Of a stretch of 24,000 nt of DNA, positions 10,718 through 24,000 are shown one piece after another. Both the position numbers and the translations under genes were made by a program. The notes beneath the pieces were generated by a model. That model was not told the DNA's origin. It saw only the letters and a program-made list of their open reading frames with translations, and did no database searches. Each line of letters opens with the position of its first letter. Within the stretch, counting starts at the first letter, position 1. The DNA is from an uncultured Dehalococcoidia bacterium. Its GTDB lineage: Bacteria > Chloroflexota > Dehalococcoidia > Lucifugimonadales > Lucifugimonadaceae. Location: the NCBI GenBank assembly GCA_951812795.1, contig OX638325.1, positions 1,488,277-1,512,276 of the forward strand, given 5' to 3'.

Positions 10718-11179
10718 ATGACCGAGCGCAACAATCATCCGGTAGCCCCTCCCGCCTCCGACGAAGGCACGCGTCGTTCGATGATGTCCAACCGCCGCAC
10801 GGACACGAAGCCCGAGATCGCCTTCCGAAGTATGTTGCACCGTTCCGGACTCCGATTTCGAAAAGATCGCTACGTAAAACTCGAAACTCGAGGCGTCAAA
10901 GTCGACGTCGTGTTCCCGACGCAACGCGTCGCGGTCTTCATCGATGGATGCTTTTGGCACCGCTGTCCCGAGCACGGAACGATGCCAACACGCAACTACG
11001 AATATTGGCTGGCGAAATTCCGAAGGAACATGGACCGGGACGCGGCTAACAATGAAAATCTGCGACGTATCGGTTGGCGCGTGTTGAGGGTTTGGGAGCA
11101 CGAAGTGAAAGACGATGAACTCGCGCAATACGCGGTGGACAGGGTCAAAACTGCGGTTCGACTGGTTGCGAGATCGTAA
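10718..11179 (+). CDS. vsr: Very-short-patch repair endonuclease (Vsr, T:G mismatch endonuclease)
   Basis: SNRRTDTKPEIAFRSMLHRSGLRFR, VDVVFPTQRVAVFIDGCFWHRCPEH, TRNYEYWLAKFRRNMDRD and GWRVLRVWEHEV make a colinear match to the Vsr family signature blocks. Confidence 0.85.
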   Translation: MTERNNHPVAPPASDEGTRRSMMSNRRTDTKPEIAFRSMLHRSGLRFRKDRYVKLETRGVKVDVVFPTQRVAVFIDGCFWHRCPEHGTMPTRNYEYWLAKFRRNMDRDAANNENLRRIGWRVLRVWEHEVKDDELAQYAVDRVKTAVRLVARS

Positions 11180-12559: not shown

Positions 12560-13639
12560 ATGACCACCTCGACTCTCGCCGCAGTTATCTACAAGCAGGG
12601 CGAACCTGCAATCGTCGAATCTTTGGAGCTTGATGACCCGGGACCGGGAGAGGTTATGGTCAATATCGGCGGCACCGGCGTCTGCCACAGCGACCACAAT
12701 GTCTACTCCGGATACAGACACACCGACGCATTGCCGGCCATATTAGGTCACGAGGGTGCTGGCATCGTCGAAAAGATCGGCGCGGATGTTCATGGGCTTG
12801 AACCGGGCGACAAAGTGGTGTTCGCTATTCGCCCGATGTGCGGACGTTGCAAATACTGCTCAACTGGACGTTGGAACCTTTGCGATCCGATCTCGTCGCA
12901 CTCGCCAACCGCACAGTTCCGCAAAAACGGCGCTCAGTACCACGCCGGATTGGCAACATTCGCGGAGCACACCGTGGTTTGGGAGAACAATGTCGTTAAA
13001 GTCGATCCCGACGTCCCGCTCGATCGCGCCGCGCTCGTCGGATGTGCAGTAATCACCGGCGTCGGCGCAGTCGTCAATCGGGCCAAAATCGAAACTGGAT
13101 CGACCGTGGCCGTTTGGGGTTGTGGCGGCGTGGGTCTCAACGTAATTCAAGGCGCGCACCTCTCCGGGGCATTGAGGATCATCGCCGTCGACACCAATCC
13201 CTCCAAGTTCCAATACGCCACGAAGATGGGCGCCACCGACACCGTCGACGCATCCAATGACGATGCCGTAGAGGCGATCCGAGATCTTACTGACGGAGGT
13301 GTTGACTACGCGTTTGAGGTAATCGGACAGCCCGCGACCCTGCGACAAGCGTTAGAAGCTACCTGTGACGGCGGGACGGCGGTTCTTGTCGGCGCGGCCC
13401 CGGACGGCGGCGAGGTCATGATCCCGATGCGCCATCTGTTTCTCGACCGTGCTTTAATCGGATGCAGTGCCGGTACCGGAAGTCCTAGGCACGATTTCCA
13501 GTGGCTGATCGCTCTGTATCAGCAGGGTCGGTTGAACCTCGACGACTTAGTTACGCGGACGCGTCCGTTGACGGAGGTTAACGAGGCATTTAGGGATATG
13601 GAGGCCGGTGCGGTCGCGCGGACAGTGTTGGTGCCCTGA
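12560..13639 (+). CDS. Zinc-dependent alcohol dehydrogenase (MDR family, class III / formaldehyde-dehydrogenase-like)
   Basis: The catalytic-zinc region is GVCHSDHNVYSG...LGHEGAGIVEKIG and the structural-zinc Cys cluster is CGRCKYCSTGRWNLC. The Rossmann motif is VAVWGCGGVGLNVIQG. Confidence 0.85.
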   Translation: MTTSTLAAVIYKQGEPAIVESLELDDPGPGEVMVNIGGTGVCHSDHNVYSGYRHTDALPAILGHEGAGIVEKIGADVHGLEPGDKVVFAIRPMCGRCKYCSTGRWNLCDPISSHSPTAQFRKNGAQYHAGLATFAEHTVVWENNVVKVDPDVPLDRAALVGCAVITGVGAVVNRAKIETGSTVAVWGCGGVGLNVIQGAHLSGALRIIAVDTNPSKFQYATKMGATDTVDASNDDAVEAIRDLTDGGVDYAFEVIGQPATLRQALEATCDGGTAVLVGAAPDGGEVMIPMRHLFLDRALIGCSAGTGSPRHDFQWLIALYQQGRLNLDDLVTRTRPLTEVNEAFRDMEAGAVARTVLVP

Positions 13640-13656
13640 GCACCCAACCGCTCGAA

Positions 13657-13866
13657 TCAATCACCGCTCGCGCTGACCTGGCTCTGAAAACCGGTGCGGA
13701 TGTGAGAATTGTCGCAGTAGGGCTTGGTGTTGGAGATACCGCATCGGCAGAGCCGAACTTTTCCGTGTTGCTTGAACTCGCCACCTTCAGAATCGCGCAA
13801 CTCGAAATCTCCGACCACCTGTAAGGCGTCGTTATTCCAGACGTATATGCGGGTTGGTTCGGTCAC
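13657..13866 (-). CDS. CDGSH-type iron-sulfur domain protein (variant CDNSH)
   Basis: This 69-aa product carries CRCGISNTKPYCDNSH, which matches C-x-C-x2-S-x3-P-x-C-D-x-S-H. It starts 3 nt after the stop of the upstream CDGSH gene. Confidence 0.75.
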   Translation of the reverse strand: MTEPTRIYVWNNDALQVVGDFELRDSEGGEFKQHGKVRLCRCGISNTKPYCDNSHIRTGFQSQVSASGD

Positions 13867-13869
13867 GAT

Positions 13870-14067
13870 TTATGCCCTGCAAGCGTCGCTGAAACCGGCT
13901 AGGTTGTGTGATCCGTCGCAGAACGGCTTTTCCTCAGACTGCCCGCAACGGCACAGGTATGCCTCGCCTTGAACGGGAAACTCGTTGCCATCCGCATCGG
14001 AGACGACGAAATTGCCGCTGACCCAATACGGTCCGTTGTCGGATGTTGTCACTGTGGTGTCTGCCAT
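13870..14067 (-). CDS. CDGSH-type iron-sulfur domain protein
   Basis: This 65-aa product carries CRCGQSEEKPFCDGSH, an exact match to the canonical CDGSH 2Fe-2S motif. Confidence 0.8.
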   Translation of the reverse strand: MADTTVTTSDNGPYWVSGNFVVSDADGNEFPVQGEAYLCRCGQSEEKPFCDGSHNLAGFSDACRA

Positions 14068-14271
14068 CTAATTACTCTCCCGCTCTGGAGCGTTTTTGGC
14101 GCTGGAATGTTCTTGTAACCGCATTGTAACGCGTATCATTCCATGAGACTATTGTCCCGCCATTCTCGTTGGAGGGATCTTGGATCGGTAGGGGCAGGTT
14201 TCAAATCTGGCCTATGGCGTTCCGGCATTCAAGGAAATGACTTGGTTTGGCGCGATACGACCGCGAATATC

Positions 14272-14296
14272 CCCTCTCCCGCTCGGCGGGAGAGGG
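14272..14296. repeat. REP-like GC-rich hairpin in the 5' intergenic region
   Basis: CCCTCTCCCGC (14272-14282) pairs perfectly with GCGGGAGAGGG (14286-14296) around a 3-nt loop. TTAGGGTGAGGG follows immediately. A partial copy of the left arm (CCCCTCTCCCGG) occurs at 671-682. Confidence 0.5.
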
Positions 14297-14312
14297 TTAG
14301 GGTGAGGGCACT

Positions 14313-15470
14313 ATGAAAATCACTGAAATCAAAACCTTCCTGATGTCCGGAGGCGGCAGCCGCAATTGGTGCTTCGTTAAGGTCTACACCGATGCGGGGA
14401 TTTATGGAGTTGGCGAGGGTTCAGGTTGGCCGCGTGTGGTCCAGACGGGGGTGGAGGATCTGGCCAACATCGTCGTGGGTGAGGATCCGACCGATATCGA
14501 GCGACTGCATCAGCAAATGATCGTGGCGATCATGGGCCATGGAATGACGGGAACGCCAGGGTCTGGCGCGATCAACGCGATCGACATGGCCCTCTGGGAC
14601 ATCAAAGGCAAAGTGTTGAACACGCCAGTATGGAACCTGATCGGCGGAAGGGTTCGCAAACGGATACGCACGTATGCTCATGCCGGAACGCCAGAACGCG
14701 CGCTCGAGATGCGCGACCGCGGGATCACCGGCGTGAAGACCGGCGGAGTTTATCGGACGGTCGAACGAGTCGAAGCTATCCGGCACGCGGTGGGCGATGA
14801 GATGGACATTATGGTCGACGCTCATGGTCCGCCGTGGTTCACTGCCAAAGACGCCATCATCGTCGGCAAAGGGTTGGAGCCCTACAATCTGCTGTTCTAC
14901 GAAGACCCGGTGCCGCCGGAAAACACTGAGGCGATGCGGCGGGTTCAGGAAAATGTCGATATTCCGATTGCAGCCGGGGAGCGACATTCTTATCTCTGGG
15001 GAGTCCGCGAAATCATCGAGGACGAGATCGTAGATGTTGTGCAACCAGATTCCGGTCGAATCGGCGGTATCACGCAGTTGAAGAAGATCGCAGCGTTGGC
15101 AGAGGCGCACTACATCAACGTTGCTCCGCACTCAGGGACGTTGGGCCCGGTGGCCGAATATGCCGCGATTCACATCTTGGCGGCAATTCCGAACGCGTTG
15201 ATACTGGAGCGCTTGGAGGACGATGTGCCGCAGCGGTACGAGGTGATCCTGCCGCATCTGCCGACGGTTGATGGCTACATCACGGTGCCTGAAAAGCCAG
15301 GCTTAGGTGTTGATTTCGACGAGGATGTCGTGGCGGCGAACCCGCCCGAACCGAACGTACGAACCGGTCCAGATCCGTCGAGTGGACACTACGAGTTTGG
15401 CACCGACGAGGAATATGTCTACTACCAGCAGCGGTACCGCCGAGGACGGGAATTGCCGCGTCTTAAGTGA
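14313..15470 (+). CDS. Enolase-superfamily enzyme, mandelate racemase/muconate-lactonizing family (galactonate-dehydratase-like acid-sugar dehydratase)
   Basis: The N-terminus MKITEIKTFLM...NWCFVKVYTDAGIYGVGEG is capping-domain-like. AIDMALWDIKGK is present. The metal-ligand series is MVDAHG, FYEDP, AAGER, followed by VVQPD. Confidence 0.85.
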   Translation: MKITEIKTFLMSGGGSRNWCFVKVYTDAGIYGVGEGSGWPRVVQTGVEDLANIVVGEDPTDIERLHQQMIVAIMGHGMTGTPGSGAINAIDMALWDIKGKVLNTPVWNLIGGRVRKRIRTYAHAGTPERALEMRDRGITGVKTGGVYRTVERVEAIRHAVGDEMDIMVDAHGPPWFTAKDAIIVGKGLEPYNLLFYEDPVPPENTEAMRRVQENVDIPIAAGERHSYLWGVREIIEDEIVDVVQPDSGRIGGITQLKKIAALAEAHYINVAPHSGTLGPVAEYAAIHILAAIPNALILERLEDDVPQRYEVILPHLPTVDGYITVPEKPGLGVDFDEDVVAANPPEPNVRTGPDPSSGHYEFGTDEEYVYYQQRYRRGRELPRLK

Positions 15471-17414: not shown

Positions 17415-18650
17415 TCACCCCAAAACCGTCATCATCACCACCCGGTTCGTGTTTGTGCCGCGTCGGTTGTTGGTGACGCCCCAAGTGTTTGAGGTCTTCG
17501 TAAAGTCTTGCTGGTTTACGAGGACCCCGATTACTTCGACGGGAAGTTGGGCATCTCGAATTGCTGCGTAAACTAGGTCTTCAAGTTTGATGGTTGAGTT
17601 GCGGACCTCGCCGACTTCGTAGCAGATCGTACCGCCGGGTTTGACGACTCGGCAAAGCTCTCGCAAAGTTTCGGCGGTGAAACGTTGCCAATTTTCGGGG
17701 TTTTGCAGGATTGCGATTGGTTGCGCGTCAATGTCTATGTCGGCGAACCACGCCCGAACGTGGTTGTCGGACCGGTAGTCGACGGTGTCAAGGAACGGAG
17801 GCGATGTCACAATCAAATCGACCGAAGCTGTTTTGATCTCTGGCGTGGATGTCGAGTCGCCGCAGATCAGATCAAATTGGGTGTAGTTTAGTCCCCCATG
17901 ACGGAGCAAAGATCGACTCTTCCGCAATATCAATTCTTTGACGTCACGTTCAGAGGGAGTCTGTCCGCGCTTTTCGTTGATGCGCGACTGGCTTTCGATT
18001 GATGCCGCTTGATTTGGGGGTAGCGTGTAAACGGAAAAGAAACCGGGGGAGTGTCCGGTCAATCGACTCATCGCCACCAACCGGATCCAGTCATCGACAG
18101 AATCAAACGTGCCTGTTGTATCGCGTTCGCTTAACCAAGATCGGAGTGCGACGATTTGTCGGAGCGTCGCGGGGTGAAAGAAGACAGCGAATCGCTCATC
18201 GGATTCCGTTGGCTCTACGGCACCCCATGGCACTTCTCGCAACCGGGTTTCGATTTCGCGCAGTTCGGGGGTGTTGAGCCGCGGCCGCGTCATCATGATC
18301 GAAATAGGATTCGCGTCGTTACCGACTGCATGTCGATTCATGAGGGCCGCCTGAATCGGTGTCGTGCCTCGTCCCATGAATGGGTCGTATACGACGCCCT
18401 CGGGATCGGTCAGTCGGGCGATGAAAAACTCGGGGAGTTGTGGTTTGAAGCATGCTCGGTAGCTGATTTCGTGCAAAGCGTGACCGGCCCGCTGTGCATG
18501 CGTCCAGAACTCGTTGACGTAATAGACGAGTGGAAGCGCGTCGGAAGATGAAGTAACTTCGACGACTTCGGTTTTATTTCCAAAGTCGTCGAAGTTGGTC
18601 AACCCGTCGACGAAGTTGTCGACGCGGCTGCGATGTTCCAGACTGATCAC
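17415..18650 (-). CDS. Site-specific DNA methyltransferase (N4-cytosine/N6-adenine class, SPPF catalytic motif), orphan
   Basis: The AdoMet motif I is VYDPFMGRGTT (aa 88-97; DPFMGRG itself is aa 89-95). It is preceded by the HEISYRACFKPQLPEFFI block. The catalytic motif IV is LIVTSPPFLD (SPPF is aa 283-286). No adjacent endonuclease-like ORF is visible. Confidence 0.75.
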   Translation of the reverse strand: MISLEHRSRVDNFVDGLTNFDDFGNKTEVVEVTSSSDALPLVYYVNEFWTHAQRAGHALHEISYRACFKPQLPEFFIARLTDPEGVVYDPFMGRGTTPIQAALMNRHAVGNDANPISIMMTRPRLNTPELREIETRLREVPWGAVEPTESDERFAVFFHPATLRQIVALRSWLSERDTTGTFDSVDDWIRLVAMSRLTGHSPGFFSVYTLPPNQAASIESQSRINEKRGQTPSERDVKELILRKSRSLLRHGGLNYTQFDLICGDSTSTPEIKTASVDLIVTSPPFLDTVDYRSDNHVRAWFADIDIDAQPIAILQNPENWQRFTAETLRELCRVVKPGGTICYEVGEVRNSTIKLEDLVYAAIRDAQLPVEVIGVLVNQQDFTKTSNTWGVTNNRRGTNTNRVVMMTVLG

Positions 18651-18792
18651 TCCGCGAGATTGTAAGTAACGACCGGGCGATCAGTACGGGGGCAGTGCAG
18701 ACCTGCTACCTGCTGTATCCGGTGCTGGATGCGGTTTCGACATTGTCGACCAATGAATTCAACACGAATTCGAAGTCCTGGTACGCGGCGGA

Positions 18793-21198
18793 TTAGACGG
18801 ACGACGAAGGTTCGTCGGGTTCTTCAATTTCGGTTTCTGGCACCGCCATCACACTCGCCATGCGGCGCCGCCGACGGATCCAGAAACGGATCGCGAAGTA
18901 GATGCCCGCACCGAGGATCAGCCAGATCGGCGAGGTCGTCGCGATCCAGATCGCCGCCGTGCCTGCAAAGGTGAAGAACGCGACCAGAACGTTGAGTCCT
19001 TGTGTGGCGGTGTCTCCGGGTTCGAATTCGGACGAGTTCACTGTTGGCGATGCCGTGACGTATATGTCGATGAAATGCGTTTCGCGCACTTCGCCGGCAT
19101 CGCTGTCGCCCCATATCTCGAACTTGACGAGGTACGAATCGGGCCTAAACCGGTCGAATGCATGATCGATCTCGACGCGAGTCACGTCGGTACCGATCGG
19201 CTCTTCGGTGATCTTCGAACCGTCACGGAAGTCCCACCGGTGCATCAAGTTCCGTACCGTCTCCGGATGGTTGAAGGTCGCGGTGAATCTGACCGTTTGG
19301 TTCTCTTCTATGGTGTGTTGAGAGGCCGACAGGTATGCTTCGATCTGTGGCAGTTCCGAGACATGTGCCCACAGCTGGTCACCGCCTTCGGAAACACCTC
19401 TGTCAGACGATGCTTTGACTTTTACCGTCACTACGTATGGCGAGAACGCGTCATTGGTGTAGGTATGGACGACCGGCGCGCTCAAGTAGCTCGACGCGTC
19501 CTGAGTCTTTAACGCCGAATGGACCGTCTGAGACCCGGTTCCGTCGCCGAAATCCCAAGTGATCTCGAAACGATCGTATCCTTCGGGCGGAATGAAGCGC
19601 GCGGTGTACTGCCGTTGCACGTTCGTACCGACGCCGATGTCTTCTCCAGCGTCTACTTCAACCGCTATGGGAGCGACGTTGACCCAGAACTTGTCTCTCC
19701 CGTGTGCCACGCCTTGGTCAGAAGACGCATTGACGTTGACCGACACGACGTACGGTGAGAACCTGTCGGTATCGTAAGCGTGAACTACAGGGACGCTAAG
19801 GTAACCTTGGTTGTCTCGAGTACGCAGCGCTGATCGCACGATCTTCTGTCCGGAAGCGTTGCCGAAGTCCCAGGTGATCCTGAAGTTATCGTAACCCTCC
19901 GGCGGATTGAACCGCGCAGTGTACTGGTTCTGTTCGTGGACACCGACATCGATATCGCCACCCGCATCGACGTTGAACGAGACCGGCGCGACGTGCGCCC
20001 AGATTTTGTCTTCACCTTGTGCCACGCCGTTTTCCGAGTACGCCTTGATGTTGACCGTTACGACATAGGGGGAGAAGCCGTCGCTGCTGTAGCTGTGAAC
20101 TACCGGCACGCTCAACAACCCTTCTTCGTTTTGGGTCCTGAGGGCAGACTTGGCGGAACTAGGTGGTGATCCGTCGCCGAAATCCCAGACGATCTCGTAC
20201 GTGTCGTACCCTTCTGGCGGATTGAAACGCGCAGTGTATTGTCGCTGGGTCGATAGCCCCACGCGGATGTCTGGGCCAGCATCAACCTGCATCGGGATTG
20301 GCGAGAGGTTTACGGTTACCTCCAATTTGGAGAAGTTCGCGGATTGACTGATGAACCGCAATCGTCCGTCAATGCTTTCGAGTTCGGTCTGCCAACTGGT
20401 TATCTCCTTTTGCACTTCCAACAGTTCTTCGACGCTGTCGTACTCGGCGGTTTTCAGTAGCTCCGTCAAAGCGTTAACGGTTTCTTGAACCGTCGTTTGT
20501 CGGGCAGTGAGATCGATGAACTCTTCGGTGAAGTCCGCGCTCGTTGAATTGACTTTTTCAACCTTCGCCACGGAATTTGAGATCTCGTCGATGACGGCAT
20601 CTAAGATTTCAGCGGGCACTCGGATCGTGATGCTGTACGAACCTCGATCATTGGCGGTGCTGTCGACGATCCAACCTCCGCGGTCATTGGCAAGATCGCC
20701 GATTGCGTCGATGGTTGCGCTCGGGTCATCGGATTGCACCGTCATTTCTGCATTTCGGACGATCACTCGTGCCTGTGGTTGGAACGAGATTTCGTCGCTT
20801 TGCGCAGTACCTTCTGAGCCGGATTGGGATTCAACCGATTCGTTTGGGGCTGGCGCCGCGGAACTAGCCGGTTGGACCACACTCTCGCCAGCGACCTCAA
20901 CCTCCTTCAAGACCTCAACAACGCTCTCGACTTCGACCTCCCTCATGACTTCAATTTCGCGCTCGACCACGACGGTCTGGACTACGATTTCGCTTGAAAC
21001 CATCACCTCTTTTTCAACTACTACGGTCTGAATTATTGTTTCACCTTTAACTTCGCGCTCAACCATAAAAGCATCGTTACTCGGTTCCCCATCGCTAGAG
21101 CCGCCGCAATTGACAACCATCAATGCTGCGAACATAAAGCTGAATAGGCTGAGGAAGATTTTCGGTCGCTGAGCGACCATGTCTATTGCGTATGTCAT
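18793..21198 (-). CDS. Envelope protein: N-terminal anchor, V/E-rich linker, DUF4349-like domain, 4 PKD domains, C-terminal membrane anchor
   Basis: AGGAG sits 8 nt upstream of ATG 21198. The hydrophobic N-terminus ends in VVNCGG. VVQTVVVEKEV-type repeats span aa 45-110. The region aa 140-300 (RVIVRNAEMTVQSDD..., ITIRVPAEILDAVIDEIS, SADFTEEFIDLTAR, IDGRLRFISQSANFSKLEVTV) resembles DUF4349 as I remember the family. Three 105-aa repeats carry WDFGDG/WDFGNA, followed by a fourth divergent one with WDFRDG (PKD signature). A hydrophobic segment of about 40 residues is followed by RRRRR and an acidic tail. Confidence 0.8.
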   Translation of the reverse strand: MTYAIDMVAQRPKIFLSLFSFMFAALMVVNCGGSSDGEPSNDAFMVEREVKGETIIQTVVVEKEVMVSSEIVVQTVVVEREIEVMREVEVESVVEVLKEVEVAGESVVQPASSAAPAPNESVESQSGSEGTAQSDEISFQPQARVIVRNAEMTVQSDDPSATIDAIGDLANDRGGWIVDSTANDRGSYSITIRVPAEILDAVIDEISNSVAKVEKVNSTSADFTEEFIDLTARQTTVQETVNALTELLKTAEYDSVEELLEVQKEITSWQTELESIDGRLRFISQSANFSKLEVTVNLSPIPMQVDAGPDIRVGLSTQRQYTARFNPPEGYDTYEIVWDFGDGSPPSSAKSALRTQNEEGLLSVPVVHSYSSDGFSPYVVTVNIKAYSENGVAQGEDKIWAHVAPVSFNVDAGGDIDVGVHEQNQYTARFNPPEGYDNFRITWDFGNASGQKIVRSALRTRDNQGYLSVPVVHAYDTDRFSPYVVSVNVNASSDQGVAHGRDKFWVNVAPIAVEVDAGEDIGVGTNVQRQYTARFIPPEGYDRFEITWDFGDGTGSQTVHSALKTQDASSYLSAPVVHTYTNDAFSPYVVTVKVKASSDRGVSEGGDQLWAHVSELPQIEAYLSASQHTIEENQTVRFTATFNHPETVRNLMHRWDFRDGSKITEEPIGTDVTRVEIDHAFDRFRPDSYLVKFEIWGDSDAGEVRETHFIDIYVTASPTVNSSEFEPGDTATQGLNVLVAFFTFAGTAAIWIATTSPIWLILGAGIYFAIRFWIRRRRRMASVMAVPETEIEEPDEPSSSV
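19342..20286 (-). repeat. Three tandem 315-nt coding repeats (PKD domains 1-3)
   Basis: The repeat units start at the VDAG(P/G/E)D codons at 20286, 19971 and 19656, giving an exact 315-nt period. Conserved blocks are QYTARFNPPEGYD, WDFG, SVPVVH and FSPYVV(T/S)V. Confidence 0.85.
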
Positions 21199-21239
21199 GA
21201 TGAGTTCTCCTTCGTGTGGATTGGGTTCATATAGGAGTT

Positions 21240-21265
21240 GACGCTGGGGGATGCTATTTTGTTCC
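21240..21265 (-). promoter_or_regulatory. Putative ECF-sigma-type promoter P1 (GGAAC-N17-CGTC)
   Basis: The minus strand reads CAGCGGGAACAAAATAGCATCCCCCAGCGTCAAC. The -35 GGAAC is at 21265-21261 and the -10 CGTC at 21243-21240, with an exact 17-nt spacer. There are 41 nt from the -10 to ATG 21198. The GCGGGAACAAA block is identical to that at 23470-23480. Confidence 0.55.
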
Positions 21266-21308
21266 CGCTGAAACGCAGTTTTTCTGAACCTGTTGCGTGT
21301 CCAATAAC

Positions 21309-21344
21309 GAAGACGCCCTCGCGCTATGGAACGAGGGCGTCTTC
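21309..21344 (-). terminator. Stem-loop downstream of the vWA gene (probable terminator, weak U-tract)
   Basis: GAAGACGCCCTCG (21309-21321) pairs perfectly with CGAGGGCGTCTTC (21332-21344) around a 10-nt loop. On the minus strand it is followed by GTTATTGG. It lies between stop 21415 and promoter P1. Confidence 0.45.
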
Positions 21345-21414
21345 TTCGCTTCTCACCGTCAGACTCGCGACGATGAGCGATATCGAAGGCAATGAGCCTT
21401 CAGAGGTCTGCTGA

Positions 21415-23412
21415 TTACCTGCTGTAACCGGTGCGTGGAACTGGTTGGACGCTTCCGACCAGCGAGTCGAGCACGAACTCGAAGTCGTTATAGGCGTCGG
21501 TGCCCGAGATCGGGGAGCCTAGCGATCGAAGCCGCGCTTGGAGGTAGGAGAGATCGTTGTGGATCGATCCGGGGTGGTCGCTGCCGTATTCGTGCCGGCC
21601 GCTGTAGCGATCAGCTGCAAGCGCGACGATGGCACCGAAGTCGGTTGTCGAATCGCGGTTTGACAGGGCGGCCTCGATCTCGCGGTGTTGGCGATTTCCT
21701 TCACCCGTGTTGGGGGTGACCCAACGGACCTCGACATTGCCGAGTGTTTCGTTTCCGTTTCGAAGCACGTACGGGTCGACCAGCTCTAGCTCGAAGAAGA
21801 CCGTAGTTGCGGCACCAGCAGGAAGCTCGGCGAACTTCTTCTCCGCACGAGTGAACGACTCGTCAGAGGTGACGCGGTTTTCGTATCCGATCATTCGCCA
21901 GCTACGAACATGCTCCTCGTCCCAGACAACTTGGGCGCGTGTCTGGTCGGCAAATGGCACGGACAGAGCGTGCCAGTTATCGCGGTCGAAGAGCATGCGT
22001 CCCTCGTCAGGCGAACTGAGGTACCGGTACCAACCGTTCCCATGTTGGGCGAGTTGTTCGAGGAGGACATCGTTGTAGTTGTTGATGCCGACACCGATGG
22101 TGATCAGTCGGATCGGGTTGGCTGGGTTGTCGTCGCGGGCCGATTCGAGGATCGCGAACGGGTTGGTCGCGTCGACGTTGGCCACGCCGTCAGACATGAG
22201 GATCACGTAGTTATACGCGTTAGGTCGCTGCCTGCGCATCTCGTCTGCCAGTTGCACACCCTGGTTCAACCCGGCTTGAACATTGGTTCCTCCACCGGGG
22301 TAGAGGTCTCGAATGGAGTTGCGGAGCGCCGTGCTTCCGGGGTCGTCGTCTTCTACGGTCAAGCCGCGCTTCACGTTGTTGTCGAAGTGAACGATCGACA
22401 TTCGATCATCTCGACCTAGGCTCGTCCGGATGGTCTCGGCGGCTGCGCGCGCAATCTCGACCCGATTTCCGTCGGACATCGAGCCGGAGCCGTCGAGGAC
22501 GAGTGTCACGTTCAACGGGAGGTCGACTACGATATCTGGCGCTTGGAACGCGACGCGAGCTAAGTGGAGGCCGTTGTCCAGCGGATGGGCCATGATGTCG
22601 GTCTGTATGTTGAAGGAATCGTCGTGACGAGGCATCTCGTAGCCGTAATTGAACGCGTTGATCCACTCTTCCGCACGGACGGATGCTGGGTCTACCTCGT
22701 ATCCAGCGCGCGTCCAGTTGAGGGCGAGTTGGAACGAAGTGCGATCGGTGTCGAGGCTGAAGGTCGATGTGTCGTCCTGAGACGTTAGAGCGAAGTTGCT
22801 GCGGGTTGTGTTCTGGAACGTAATCGCGCCGGGTTGGAAGGATTGGCTTGGCGAACTCGGCGGCGATGTCTTGACGACGGGTGTCGGTGCGCTATGCGAT
22901 GCCGCGGTTGCTCCTGGCGCGGCGGTCATGGCTTCGGCTTCTACGATTTTCTCGACCTCAACCTCCAAGACTACTTCCTTGACGATTTCCTTTTCGACAA
23001 TCACAGTTGCTACCGGCGGTTGAGGTGCCGTAGCAGCCGCGGCTTCTCCCGCAGGGCGCGCGGTGGGAACGGGCATGCCCGGTGCTCCGGGTGGTCCGGG
23101 TGCCCCCGGCGCTCCGGGCGCTCCGGGCGATCCCTTTTCGACCAATGTTTCCCCGGCAACCTCGACCCTTTTTTCCACGATGACCGTCTGAACCACCGTT
23201 TCACCCGGCACAGACACTTCCTTTTCGACGATTACGGTTTGGAGCACCGGTTGTCCGGGCACTGATTTTTCGACCACTACCGTTTGCACCACGGTTTCGT
23301 TTCCGCCACACGCGATCGTCGCGGCGACGACCGTGGCGGCGATCACGAGTGCGATGGCCGTCATCGGTTTAGTTACGAGAGTCTTGAGTTGCTCTGTTTT
23401 GTTGATCATCAT
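21415..23412 (-). CDS. Secreted/anchored von Willebrand factor type A protein (YfbK-like: N-terminal vWA-associated domain, vWA, C-terminal DUF3520-like region)
   Basis: GGAG sits 7 nt upstream of ATG 23412. The hydrophobic N-terminus ends in TIACGG. V/E-rich repeats and a Gly-X-Y run follow. The block FSLDTDRTSFQLALNWTRAGYEVDPASVRAEEWINAFNYGY is typical of the YfbK-type N-terminal domain. The MIDAS motif is LVLDGSGSM, with later GGTN and LMSDG. Confidence 0.8.
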   Translation of the reverse strand: MMINKTEQLKTLVTKPMTAIALVIAATVVAATIACGGNETVVQTVVVEKSVPGQPVLQTVIVEKEVSVPGETVVQTVIVEKRVEVAGETLVEKGSPGAPGAPGAPGPPGAPGMPVPTARPAGEAAAATAPQPPVATVIVEKEIVKEVVLEVEVEKIVEAEAMTAAPGATAASHSAPTPVVKTSPPSSPSQSFQPGAITFQNTTRSNFALTSQDDTSTFSLDTDRTSFQLALNWTRAGYEVDPASVRAEEWINAFNYGYEMPRHDDSFNIQTDIMAHPLDNGLHLARVAFQAPDIVVDLPLNVTLVLDGSGSMSDGNRVEIARAAAETIRTSLGRDDRMSIVHFDNNVKRGLTVEDDDPGSTALRNSIRDLYPGGGTNVQAGLNQGVQLADEMRRQRPNAYNYVILMSDGVANVDATNPFAILESARDDNPANPIRLITIGVGINNYNDVLLEQLAQHGNGWYRYLSSPDEGRMLFDRDNWHALSVPFADQTRAQVVWDEEHVRSWRMIGYENRVTSDESFTRAEKKFAELPAGAATTVFFELELVDPYVLRNGNETLGNVEVRWVTPNTGEGNRQHREIEAALSNRDSTTDFGAIVALAADRYSGRHEYGSDHPGSIHNDLSYLQARLRSLGSPISGTDAYNDFEFVLDSLVGSVQPVPRTGYSR

Positions 23413-23452
23413 TGCTGTTCTCCGTGACGTTGTTTTGGGTCACTGAAGAACA

Positions 23453-23478
23453 GACGACGGTGGGTGAGTATTTGTTCC
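23453..23478 (-). promoter_or_regulatory. Putative ECF-sigma-type promoter P2 (GGAAC-N17-CGTC)
   Basis: The minus strand reads CTGCGGGAACAAATACTCACCCACCGTCGTCTGT. The -35 GGAAC is at 23478-23474 and the -10 CGTC at 23456-23453, with a 17-nt spacer. There are 40 nt from the -10 to ATG 23412. Confidence 0.55.
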
Positions 23479-23497
23479 CGCAGAACTCGAAATCGTC

Positions 23498-23536
23498 AAA
23501 AATAAAAAGGCTCGGGACCGATTGCGGTCCCGAGCC
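23498..23536 (-). terminator. Rho-independent terminator of the edge-truncated upstream gene
   Basis: GGCTCGGGACCG (23509-23520) pairs perfectly with CGGTCCCGAGCC (23525-23536) around a 4-nt loop. On the minus strand TTTTTATTTTT (23508-23498) follows. The stem begins 24 nt after the stop at 23560-23562. Confidence 0.8.
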
Positions 23537-23559
23537 CTGTTAGTTTTTGTGCAGGAAAC

Positions 23560-24000
23560 CTATGCTGGTGTCCTAGCATCATCGGTATCACCGGCATCCG
23601 GCTCATCGTCCGTTGATGAAGGCACAAACACCGCACGCGCAACGTTACGTTGCCGACGAATGATAAAGCGGACGATGAAGAAGATGATTACGCCCAGAAT
23701 GATCCAGATCGGCGACGTGATGGCGAGCCAGATGCCGGCGGTTCCAGCAAAGGTGAAGACACTGATGAGGACGTTTACGGCGTTTGTTGCGGTATTGCCG
23801 GGGGCGAAATCGGATGATTCGATCTCTGGCCCCGGATAGACGTAAACGTGGGCATAGTGCGTCTCTTCAACCTCGCCGGCATCGCTGTCGCCACGGATCT
23901 CGAAGACGATCTGGTATGACTCTGGACGGTGCCGATTGAAGATGTGCTCGATTTCGATGCCGGTTTCGCCGGCGTCAACCGTTCCTTCGACGACGGGAGA
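23560..24000 (-). CDS. C-terminal 146 aa of a second PKD-like/C-terminal-anchor envelope protein (paralog of 18793-21198), 5' end beyond the window
   Basis: This ORF is absent from the track because it has no start codon in the window. My own translation of the minus frame reads ...IEIEHIFNRHRPESYQIVFEIRGDSDAGEVEETHYAHVYV...NVLISVFTFAGTAGIWLAITSPIWIILGVIIFFIVRFIIRRQRNVARAVFVPSSTDDEPDAGDTDDARTPA, ending at TAG (23562-23560). It is colinear with the last ~130 aa of the 801-aa protein. Confidence 0.75.
   Translation of the reverse strand, partial: SPVVEGTVDAGETGIEIEHIFNRHRPESYQIVFEIRGDSDAGEVEETHYAHVYVYPGPEIESSDFAPGNTATNAVNVLISVFTFAGTAGIWLAITSPIWIILGVIIFFIVRFIIRRQRNVARAVFVPSSTDDEPDAGDTDDARTPA

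Follow-up and report, generated by a model that had tools for sequence, protein, structure and literature searches.

Candidate ECF-type promoters mark a variable-copy array of DUF4349-PKD and YfbK-type vWA surface protein genes in a SAR202 lineage

To our knowledge, no function has been established for the Escherichia coli protein YfbK, and our literature search for it found no functional study. The YfbK-type family of von Willebrand factor A (vWA) proteins and the similarly large DUF4349 family (13,804, or ~14,000, representatives as clusters at 50% identity) are both without a known function. Genes of these two types form the locus described here, which occupies positions 18793-24000 on the minus strand of a 24,000-nucleotide (nt) stretch of DNA (the window) from an uncultured Dehalococcoidia bacterium (assembly GCA_951812795.1, contig OX638325.1). 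We refer to genes encoding DUF4349 together with PKD domains as D, to YfbK-type vWA genes as V and to a DNA methyltransferase gene found beside them as M. Three minus-strand reading frames occupy the locus, as had been proposed from the DNA letters at the outset: G1 (D; 18793-21198, 801 amino acids (aa)), G2 (V; 21415-23412, 665 aa) and the open frame G3 (a second D; 23560-24000). Two kinds of described proteins come closest to their products. Canonical DUF4349 proteins carry a lipobox and end in a tail anchor flanked by Arg residues (PMC10924467), and the extracytoplasmic function (ECF) sigma factor group ECF289 has an anti-sigma factor that is a fusion containing DUF3520 (now YfbK_C) and a vWA domain (Casas-Pastor et al. 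2021, PMC7826278).

The reading that we prefer, with a probability of roughly 0.6, is that the locus is part of a lineage-specific D/V tandem array of variable copy number in sponge-associated SAR202, encoding an ECF-regulated, inducible set of surface ligand-binding proteins. As part of the same reading, the D and V promoters would be the local part of one ECF regulon in which nearly every gene has a promoter of its own. The case for a functional link between D and V would rest on this shared promoter, on the alternating co-amplification of the two gene types and on an operon variant, each described below; in this sense, the label of a co-regulated envelope or surface module given to the three genes by the sequence-only reading is a fair description.

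A −35 element GGAAC combined with a −10 element CGTC is a hallmark of ECF sigma promoters. Exact copies of GCGGGAACAAA occur in the window only at 21258-21268 and 23471-23481, and both extend to GGAAC-N17-CGTC, one (21240-21265, minus strand) with the ATG of G1 41 nt downstream and the other (23453-23478, minus strand, followed by T) with the ATG of G2 40 nt downstream. The motif shared by the two complete genes, already seen in the initial inspection, is therefore real, and the comparative data greatly strengthen the case for co-regulation. Across 38 non-redundant related loci, 76 of the 90 D and V genes carry an exact GGAAC-N17-CGTC match 35-46 nt upstream of the start codon; D/V-linked matches make up 78 of the total of 122 in 748 kb, and the rest equals the chance expectation from shuffles. 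When the spacer is held to exactly 17 nt, the matches within ±10 kb of these loci fall almost exclusively before D and V genes. The sequence of the spacer varies across loci, with GGAAC, CGTC and the T after CGTC staying fixed. The element is kept upstream of long-form D orthologs (L001, L004, L013, L016, L027 and L028), and V orthologs in ~30 loci carry it at the distance seen for G2. It is also found on a lone D gene (L008, 33% identity) and a lone V gene (L042) that lie ~57 kb apart on one chromosome; because these unlinked genes keep the motif, the evidence for co-regulation is independent of gene adjacency. A scan upstream of the genes with the sigma-70 consensus returned no credible housekeeping promoter.

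The claim that each gene is its own transcription unit is supported as well. G3 is followed by a textbook intrinsic terminator (23507-23538, minus strand), consisting of a 14-bp stem with 10 GC pairs and a U-tract, UUUUUAUUUUU (−28.7 kcal/mol, z −6.4). The hairpin downstream of G2 (21309-21344, minus strand) also has a 14-bp stem and is strong in energy (−28.3 kcal/mol, z −4.5), but its U-tract is weak and a consensus terminator scan did not call it, so that of the two hairpins first proposed, at 23509-23536 and 21309-21344, the former is a canonical terminator and the latter stands as a strong stem and a probable terminator.

The variable-copy nature of the array became evident from a comparative scan of one genome per GTDB species, using a 9-sequence alignment of the closer D homologs (an 18-sequence version was too divergent). 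An exact-sequence look-up of G2 returned no record, and homologs of G1 served to recover the genomic context. The scan returned 33 loci, all from Dehalococcoidia metagenome-assembled genomes (MAGs), including "SAR202 cluster bacterium bin127". They share upstream (sulfatase, ion channel, PaREP1, epimerase) and downstream (methyltransferase, 2-hydroxyacid dehydrogenase) flanks at 80-95% protein identity and thus represent one orthologous locus of one lineage. DVM is the commonest layout, others being DVVM, DVVVM, DVDVM, DVVDVM, DVVVD…M and D alone, with up to four V copies per array; D occurs without V in L007, L008, L034 and L037, and V without D in L042. Hence the picture of two paralogs bracketing a vWA gene is an accident of the window genome, the actual unit being an array in which D and V genes vary in order and number and are co-amplified in alternation (DVDV, DVVDV). 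One V copy (L013 16373-17200), although preceded by an intact GGAAC-N17-CGTC, has an open reading frame that breaks off after 254 aa, with vWA homology resuming further on, and is probably frameshifted and decaying. In the upstream flank, an 873-aa open reading frame without a Pfam match lies between the PaREP1 and epimerase genes of L004 (1593-4214, plus strand) and L005 (2002-4623, plus strand); these loci belong to the closest relatives of the window, whereas L001 lacks the frame.

The window itself records a loss. Its 89%-identical relative L001 has the order D-V-D-V-methyltransferase, with the second V gene at 12863-14608. The 87 nt that follow the stop codon of G1 (18706-18792, minus strand) are 82% identical to L001 14528-14713, a segment covering the 3' end of this second V gene and the start of the methyltransferase region. 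Since this V 3' end (the last 28 codons, ending in AYQDFEFVLNSLVDNVETASSTGYSR, plus the stop) directly abuts the G1 stop codon, and L001 keeps the corresponding gene, the window is a D-V-D array with the deletion scar of a fourth gene, V. In seven genomes (L010, L016, L020, L024, L027, L028 and L033; at ~11.7-13.9 kb in each), a divergent V copy, termed V' (55-61% identical to G2, with a very long VQTVVVEREITVxPE repeat stalk), starts 26-60 nt past the D stop codon and lacks a GGAAC-N17-CGTC site of its own; D and V' therefore form an operon.

These data bear directly on the alternative that fares best, according to which D and V are uncoupled, i.e. independent common surface genes that sit in one lineage's recombination hot spot and belong, together with many genes located elsewhere, to a broad envelope-stress ECF regulon. 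Such an arrangement would agree with the collapse of all 33 loci into a single syntenic locus, with the loci that have only D or only V, with the free variation of order and copy number (the window lost one V copy and kept the other genes of the array) and with the sheer size of both families, as V homologs, like the DUF4349 representatives, are very numerous (>2,300). It does not readily account for the D-V' operon in seven genomes, for co-amplification that alternates between D and V instead of producing only independent runs, for a strict motif that marks only D and V genes around 38 loci, or for the retention of this motif where D and V are unlinked. We therefore consider the uncoupled alternative, weakened chiefly by the D-V' operon and by the alternation of D and V, unlikely, albeit one to be taken seriously.

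The architecture of the proteins is consistent with a surface role. All domains named in the sequence-only reading (DUF4349, PKD, a vWA domain with a metal ion-dependent adhesion site (MIDAS), and DUF3520/YfbK_C) score above the Pfam gathering cut-offs in profile hidden Markov model searches. In the long-form D protein G1, DUF4349 (PF14257) is matched with 116 bits against a cut-off of 27.7 (E 2e-33) at aa 144-298 (20305-20769, minus strand), which covers profile positions 1-156 of 213; the last 120 aa align to the profile end (positions 152-213, E 0.1) and complement the core match exactly. DUF4349 is not contiguous in G1, as ~420 aa filled by PKD domains lie between the core and the profile-end match. 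The full-length Pfam scan gave clear PKD matches (PF00801/PF18911; PKD_4 63.7 bits, PKD 50.9 bits; E 1e-13 to 1e-17), and under-called three further PKD stretches at aa 301-620 (PKD_4, E 5e-11). Repeat alignment resolved aa 301-615 (19354-20298, minus strand) into three tandem 105-aa PKD-like repeats with 60% mutual identity, to which the fourth PKD domain (19051-19353, minus strand) is 29% identical. All four domains have the WDFG motif, and the WDFGDG signature is present in the divergent repeats. A C-terminal hydrophobic helix, RRRRR and an acidic tail (18796-19020, minus strand) complete the protein.

Since the last 120 aa complement the core match, and canonical DUF4349 proteins have an Arg-flanked tail anchor, the C-terminal "anchor module" corresponds to the end of DUF4349. 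Overall, the predicted PKD domains are an insertion inside the DUF4349 architecture, and the putative anchor module is the C-terminal part of DUF4349 itself. This interpretation settles the shared C-terminal module that had been proposed to connect G1 and G3: the likeness is genuine (53% identity over G1 aa 661-795, colinear, E 5e-41) and supports the two D genes as paralogs, but it does not signify a special link between them, being the normal tail-anchor end of DUF4349. The window contains only the final 146 codons of G3, a short-form D gene (DUF4349, two PKD domains, tail anchor) that continues past the window end. An earlier worry that it might be a pseudogene fragment was dispelled by its ortholog at L004:5514-7229, on a contig 98% identical to the window both in DNA and in proteins. 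This ortholog is intact over 571 codons; its product runs from a lipobox (FAFGC) and a stalk through the DUF4349 core and two PKD domains to the tail anchor, and a GGAAC-N17-CGTC site precedes the gene.

The 269 detectable homologs of G1 all combine DUF4349 with PKD, and those from named organisms are all from Chloroflexi/Dehalococcoidia; a PKD insertion within DUF4349 is common to 61 of the 117 nearest cluster representatives. None of these 117 carries an anti-sigma or signalling domain, and the idea that DUF4349 is frequently joined to zf-HC2 anti-sigma domains was dropped as unsupported among them. A 1515-aa protein (P0366) has 15 tandem stretches whose match to the DUF4349 core is confined to the first alpha/beta subdomain of that core (aa 15-78); this subdomain can therefore stand alone as a repeat unit.

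In the AlphaFold2 model of the G1 core (pLDDT 85), a beta-alpha-beta-beta-alpha-beta unit is followed by a long hairpin of two antiparallel helices, and a closing strand comes last. Modelled at full length (pLDDT 73), G1 begins with a signal helix and a disordered stalk (aa 31-139), continues with the core and four beta-sandwiches and has one long C-terminal helix (aa 727-780), after which come RRRRR and the acidic tail. The D core is thus modelled as a ferredoxin-like alpha/beta unit plus a coiled-coil hairpin, and 2-4 PKD/Ig-like domains are inserted into DUF4349. D proteins are predicted to have two membrane anchors, a lipoprotein-type signal at the N-terminus and a tail-anchor helix at the C-terminus, a layout also seen in candidate 9 of PMC10924467.

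The V protein G2 has a lipoprotein-type signal ending in ATIAC-GG, a stalk rich in Val and Glu (V/E-rich) with a collagen-like GAPGAPGPPGAPG stretch, and then three domains, vWF_A (22561-22821, minus strand; 59.2 bits, cut-off 25, E 4e-16), VWA (22036-22512, minus strand; 68.4 bits, cut-off 23.8, E 1e-18) and YfbK_C (21775-21954, minus strand; 36.1 bits, cut-off 25, E 1e-8). Its MIDAS is complete (D307, S309, S311, T376 and D408) and invariant in 118 of 118 aligned homologs. A match to TIGR03788 (marine proteobacterial sortase target) reached only 48.6 bits against an equivalog cut-off of 551.65 and was confined to the vWA core. We predict V to be a membrane-tethered, lipoprotein-type protein whose stalk bears the vWF_A-VWA-YfbK_C ectodomain.

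All D homologs have the Cys that closes the N-terminal hydrophobic segment (alignments of 18 and of 39 sequences; Cys31 in G1), and so do nearly all V homologs. Short-form D and V lipoboxes have the canonical Ala or Gly at position −1. The long-form D lipobox (in G1, within the N-terminus at 21198-21100, minus strand) is conserved yet atypical, LMVVNC-GGSS, with Asn at −1 and a 12-residue N-region. The N-termini of G1 and G2 are indeed alike (E 1e-10), as had been pointed out in favor of a shared module; a special link between the two genes does not follow, as the likeness is that of a generic lipoprotein signal and stalk. In fact, the VVQTVVVEKEV-type repeat is even longer in a 717-aa substrate-binding lipoprotein encoded beside ABC permease genes (L008 16786-18939, minus strand), in which ~150 aa of ETVVVEKEVIKTVEVPG repeats lie past the lipobox Cys. 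Because this protein also bears it, the V/E-rich stalk is a general trait of exported Chloroflexi lipoproteins, and we rejected the repeat as a system-specific module. Such repeats are best read as an extended stalk, generic to lipoproteins of Chloroflexi, into which collagen-like GxP repeats are sometimes mixed. Collagen-like GAPGAPGPPGAPG tracts with a 9-nt DNA period lie in stalk regions, in the window at 23081-23133 (minus strand; detected by TRF) and likewise in many D/V homologs, and several homologs (P0016, P0178, P0183, P0188 and P0193) reach Pfam Collagen matches.

A connection of the V ectodomain with ECF signalling is seen in other Chloroflexi. In L043 (9454-12079), a V homolog (P0209) that is 56% identical to the G2 ectodomain and has the same MIDAS carries a ~65-residue cytoplasmic N-terminal segment before the membrane helix, and the beginning of its gene overlaps the stop codon of an ECF sigma gene (Sigma70_r2 plus r4_2). 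The same sigma-V pair is present in two more genomes with unrelated flanks (L044 6001-8509, L045 6001-8806). The cytoplasmic segment is conserved in all three (MERALREHF…), and GGAAC-N17-CGTA stands ~72 nt upstream of each of the three sigma genes. These pairs fit what has been described for the ECF289 anti-sigma factor with its vWA and DUF3520 domains (PMC7826278). The ectodomain family of G2 is thus used elsewhere as an extracytoplasmic sensor of an ECF pathway. G2 itself is not an anti-sigma factor because it has neither a cytoplasmic segment nor a sigma neighbor, and would rather be a target of an ECF sigma factor.

A number of results weigh against the preferred reading of an ECF-regulated set of ligand-binding proteins. 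The surroundings (±10 kb) of all 38 D/V loci are devoid of ECF sigma and anti-sigma genes, and no sigma70_r2/r4 gene is present in the window. A tblastn search of all loci with E. coli RpoE and Bacillus subtilis SigW and with the L043 sigma factor gave no credible match; the family of this sigma factor is unusually conserved, the top 120 matches all being at least 63% identical, and none of these is located on a window-lineage chromosome. With a −10 element of CGTA instead of the CGTC of D and V genes, a sigma factor of the L043 type is not claimable as their regulator. The promoter call itself is based on consensus and conservation. Although the neighborhood conservation that the sequence-only reading proposed to test holds within the one syntenic lineage, D and V are unlinked in more distant genomes outside it, which makes adjacency alone weak evidence of physical cooperation. 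Ligand binding by V and cooperation between D and V are what we infer in the preferred reading. The G1 core has no significant solved structural relative by Foldseek (best E 0.07), nor did a sequence search of the PDB find one. Finally, the non-canonical VVNC lipobox of G1 may denote either lipidation or an uncleaved signal anchor.

The sigma-V pairs suggest a different role, in which V copies would serve as decoys or co-sensors, in competition with a vWA anti-sigma factor for its ligand, and provide negative feedback on the ECF pathway, with D modulating this pathway instead of binding external targets. Placing V genes under an ECF-type promoter would be a classic feedback layout, and both the 56% identity of the V ectodomain to sigma-coupled, anti-sigma-like proteins with an identical MIDAS and the occurrence of vWA plus DUF3520 on ECF289 anti-sigma factors are in line with it. 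At the same time, no such sigma/anti-sigma pair was found in the window lineage, the −10 elements differ, none of the 117 nearest DUF4349 representatives has an anti-sigma or signalling domain, and up to four V copies per array seem too many for feedback. Taken together, a signalling accessory is an attractive idea but appears improbable.

Returning to the reading of an inducible surface layer, an extracytoplasmic signal would free the ECF sigma factor, which would then turn on V and D together. V would capture an external ligand via its MIDAS site; D would show PKD binding surfaces near the membrane, with the coiled-coil hairpin possibly allowing oligomerisation; and the two would act jointly as an inducible capture or adhesion layer. 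In that case, the tandem duplication of array genes, their divergence and their loss could reflect selection by variable external, possibly host-matrix, ligands. The ecology of the lineage leaves room for such ligands. The closest named genome (89% aa identity), SAR202 bin127, is a MAG of a symbiont of the sponge Aplysina aerophoba (PMC5649159), and sponge-symbiont SAR202 have been reported to lack peptidoglycan genes and to live in the host matrix (PMC6306507). A bolder version of the same idea would see in the array a means by which wall-less SAR202 sponge symbionts adhere to the host matrix, inducible and quick to diversify. In this version, an ECF pathway with a vWA/YfbK sensor would detect an extracellular ligand of the host, such as a collagen-like or acidic matrix component, and induce a complex of paralogous vWA lipoproteins and double-anchored DUF4349-PKD proteins binding the same ligand, copy number tuning host specificity. 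We regard this version as quite doubtful. Were it true, it would provide a first function for both DUF4349 and YfbK-type proteins.

The array is followed by a Type II-like N6/N4 DNA methyltransferase gene (17415-18650, minus strand; Pfam N6_N4_Mtase), which in almost every locus of the clade comes after the final V or D gene, typically at ~55-60 nt after the last V gene (L001 14664-15899 and equivalents). In the window the distance is 142 nt after G1, with no significant hairpin in this spacer, so that transcription from the ECF-type promoter may extend into the methyltransferase gene. A restriction enzyme to partner it was not seen in the vicinity. We consider this methyltransferase a conserved downstream neighbor and do not claim its membership in the D/V system. 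A role of the array as a defence or exclusion island, blocking phage adsorption or sensing infection, is highly improbable: for all its constant adjacency to the methyltransferase, its copy-number variability resembling that of defence islands and the toxin-antitoxin and AAA_15/21 genes in some flanks, PADLOC matched neither D nor V (G1 and G2) but only the methyltransferase (MTase_II, 506 bits), no nuclease or effector is linked, the methyltransferase belongs to the conserved backbone synteny rather than to the variable part, and an ECF promoter with lipoprotein topology suits envelope physiology better. The remaining genes of the window encode ordinary metabolic enzymes, the methyltransferase and a Vsr mismatch endonuclease (10718-11179, plus strand).

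For two large families without a known function, the locus supplies a sharply defined ECF-type promoter as a testable regulatory handle, represents a natural experiment in DUF4349/vWA co-amplification and links free vWA lipoproteins by direct homology to the sensor domain of an ECF anti-sigma factor. If D and V cooperate in ligand capture or host-matrix adhesion, it would tell how peptidoglycan-less SAR202 symbionts meet sponge tissue; if they do not, it is still a clean example for ECF-regulon prediction in uncultured Chloroflexota.

The term "undescribed system", applied to the three genes at first, is too strong, since both families are annotated and the combination of vWA and DUF3520 has been described as the sensor of the ECF289 anti-sigma factor (PMC7826278). 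Already known are the vWA-DUF3520 ectodomain in ECF anti-sigma factors and ECF-controlled envelope regulons as a kind; new are the D-V pairing, the PKD insertion inside DUF4349, the promoter on nearly every gene and the copy-number dynamics including a deletion scar. Compared with canonical DUF4349 proteins of ~300-350 aa (e.g. Methylobacterium WP_056088981.1, PMC10924467), which have the lipobox-type Cys, the C-terminal hydrophobic helix and the RRRRR stop-transfer also found in G1, D proteins have 2-4 PKD domains (~200-420 aa) between the core and the tail anchor. With YfbK-type vWA lipoproteins (PF12450, PF00092 and PF12034; E. coli YfbK), G2 has in common the three-domain ectodomain, the lipoprotein-type N-terminal signal and an intact MIDAS, its peculiarities being the long V/E-rich and collagen-like stalk, the ECF-type promoter and the tandem amplification beside DUF4349-PKD genes. 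The closest solved relatives of its vWA domain, those of ITIH1 and ITIH4 (E 2e-9 to 3e-5), likewise combine a MIDAS vWA domain with an N-terminal accessory domain, but these are eukaryotic secreted matrix proteins without a membrane tether, and the likeness is limited to ~180 residues. With ECF289-type anti-sigma factors, G2 shares the ectodomain family (the Chloroflexi examples in L043, L044 and L045 are 56% identical and sigma-coupled); unlike them, it has only 16 residues before the membrane helix, no cytoplasmic sigma-binding segment and no sigma gene nearby. Finally, the D and V promoters match those of ECF envelope-stress regulons of the sigma-E/sigma-W type ("AAC" at −35 and "CGT" at −10, a consensus from established knowledge), with a 17-nt spacer and a position before envelope-protein genes, whereas the local regulon as known here consists of D and V genes only, in a tandem array of variable copy number.

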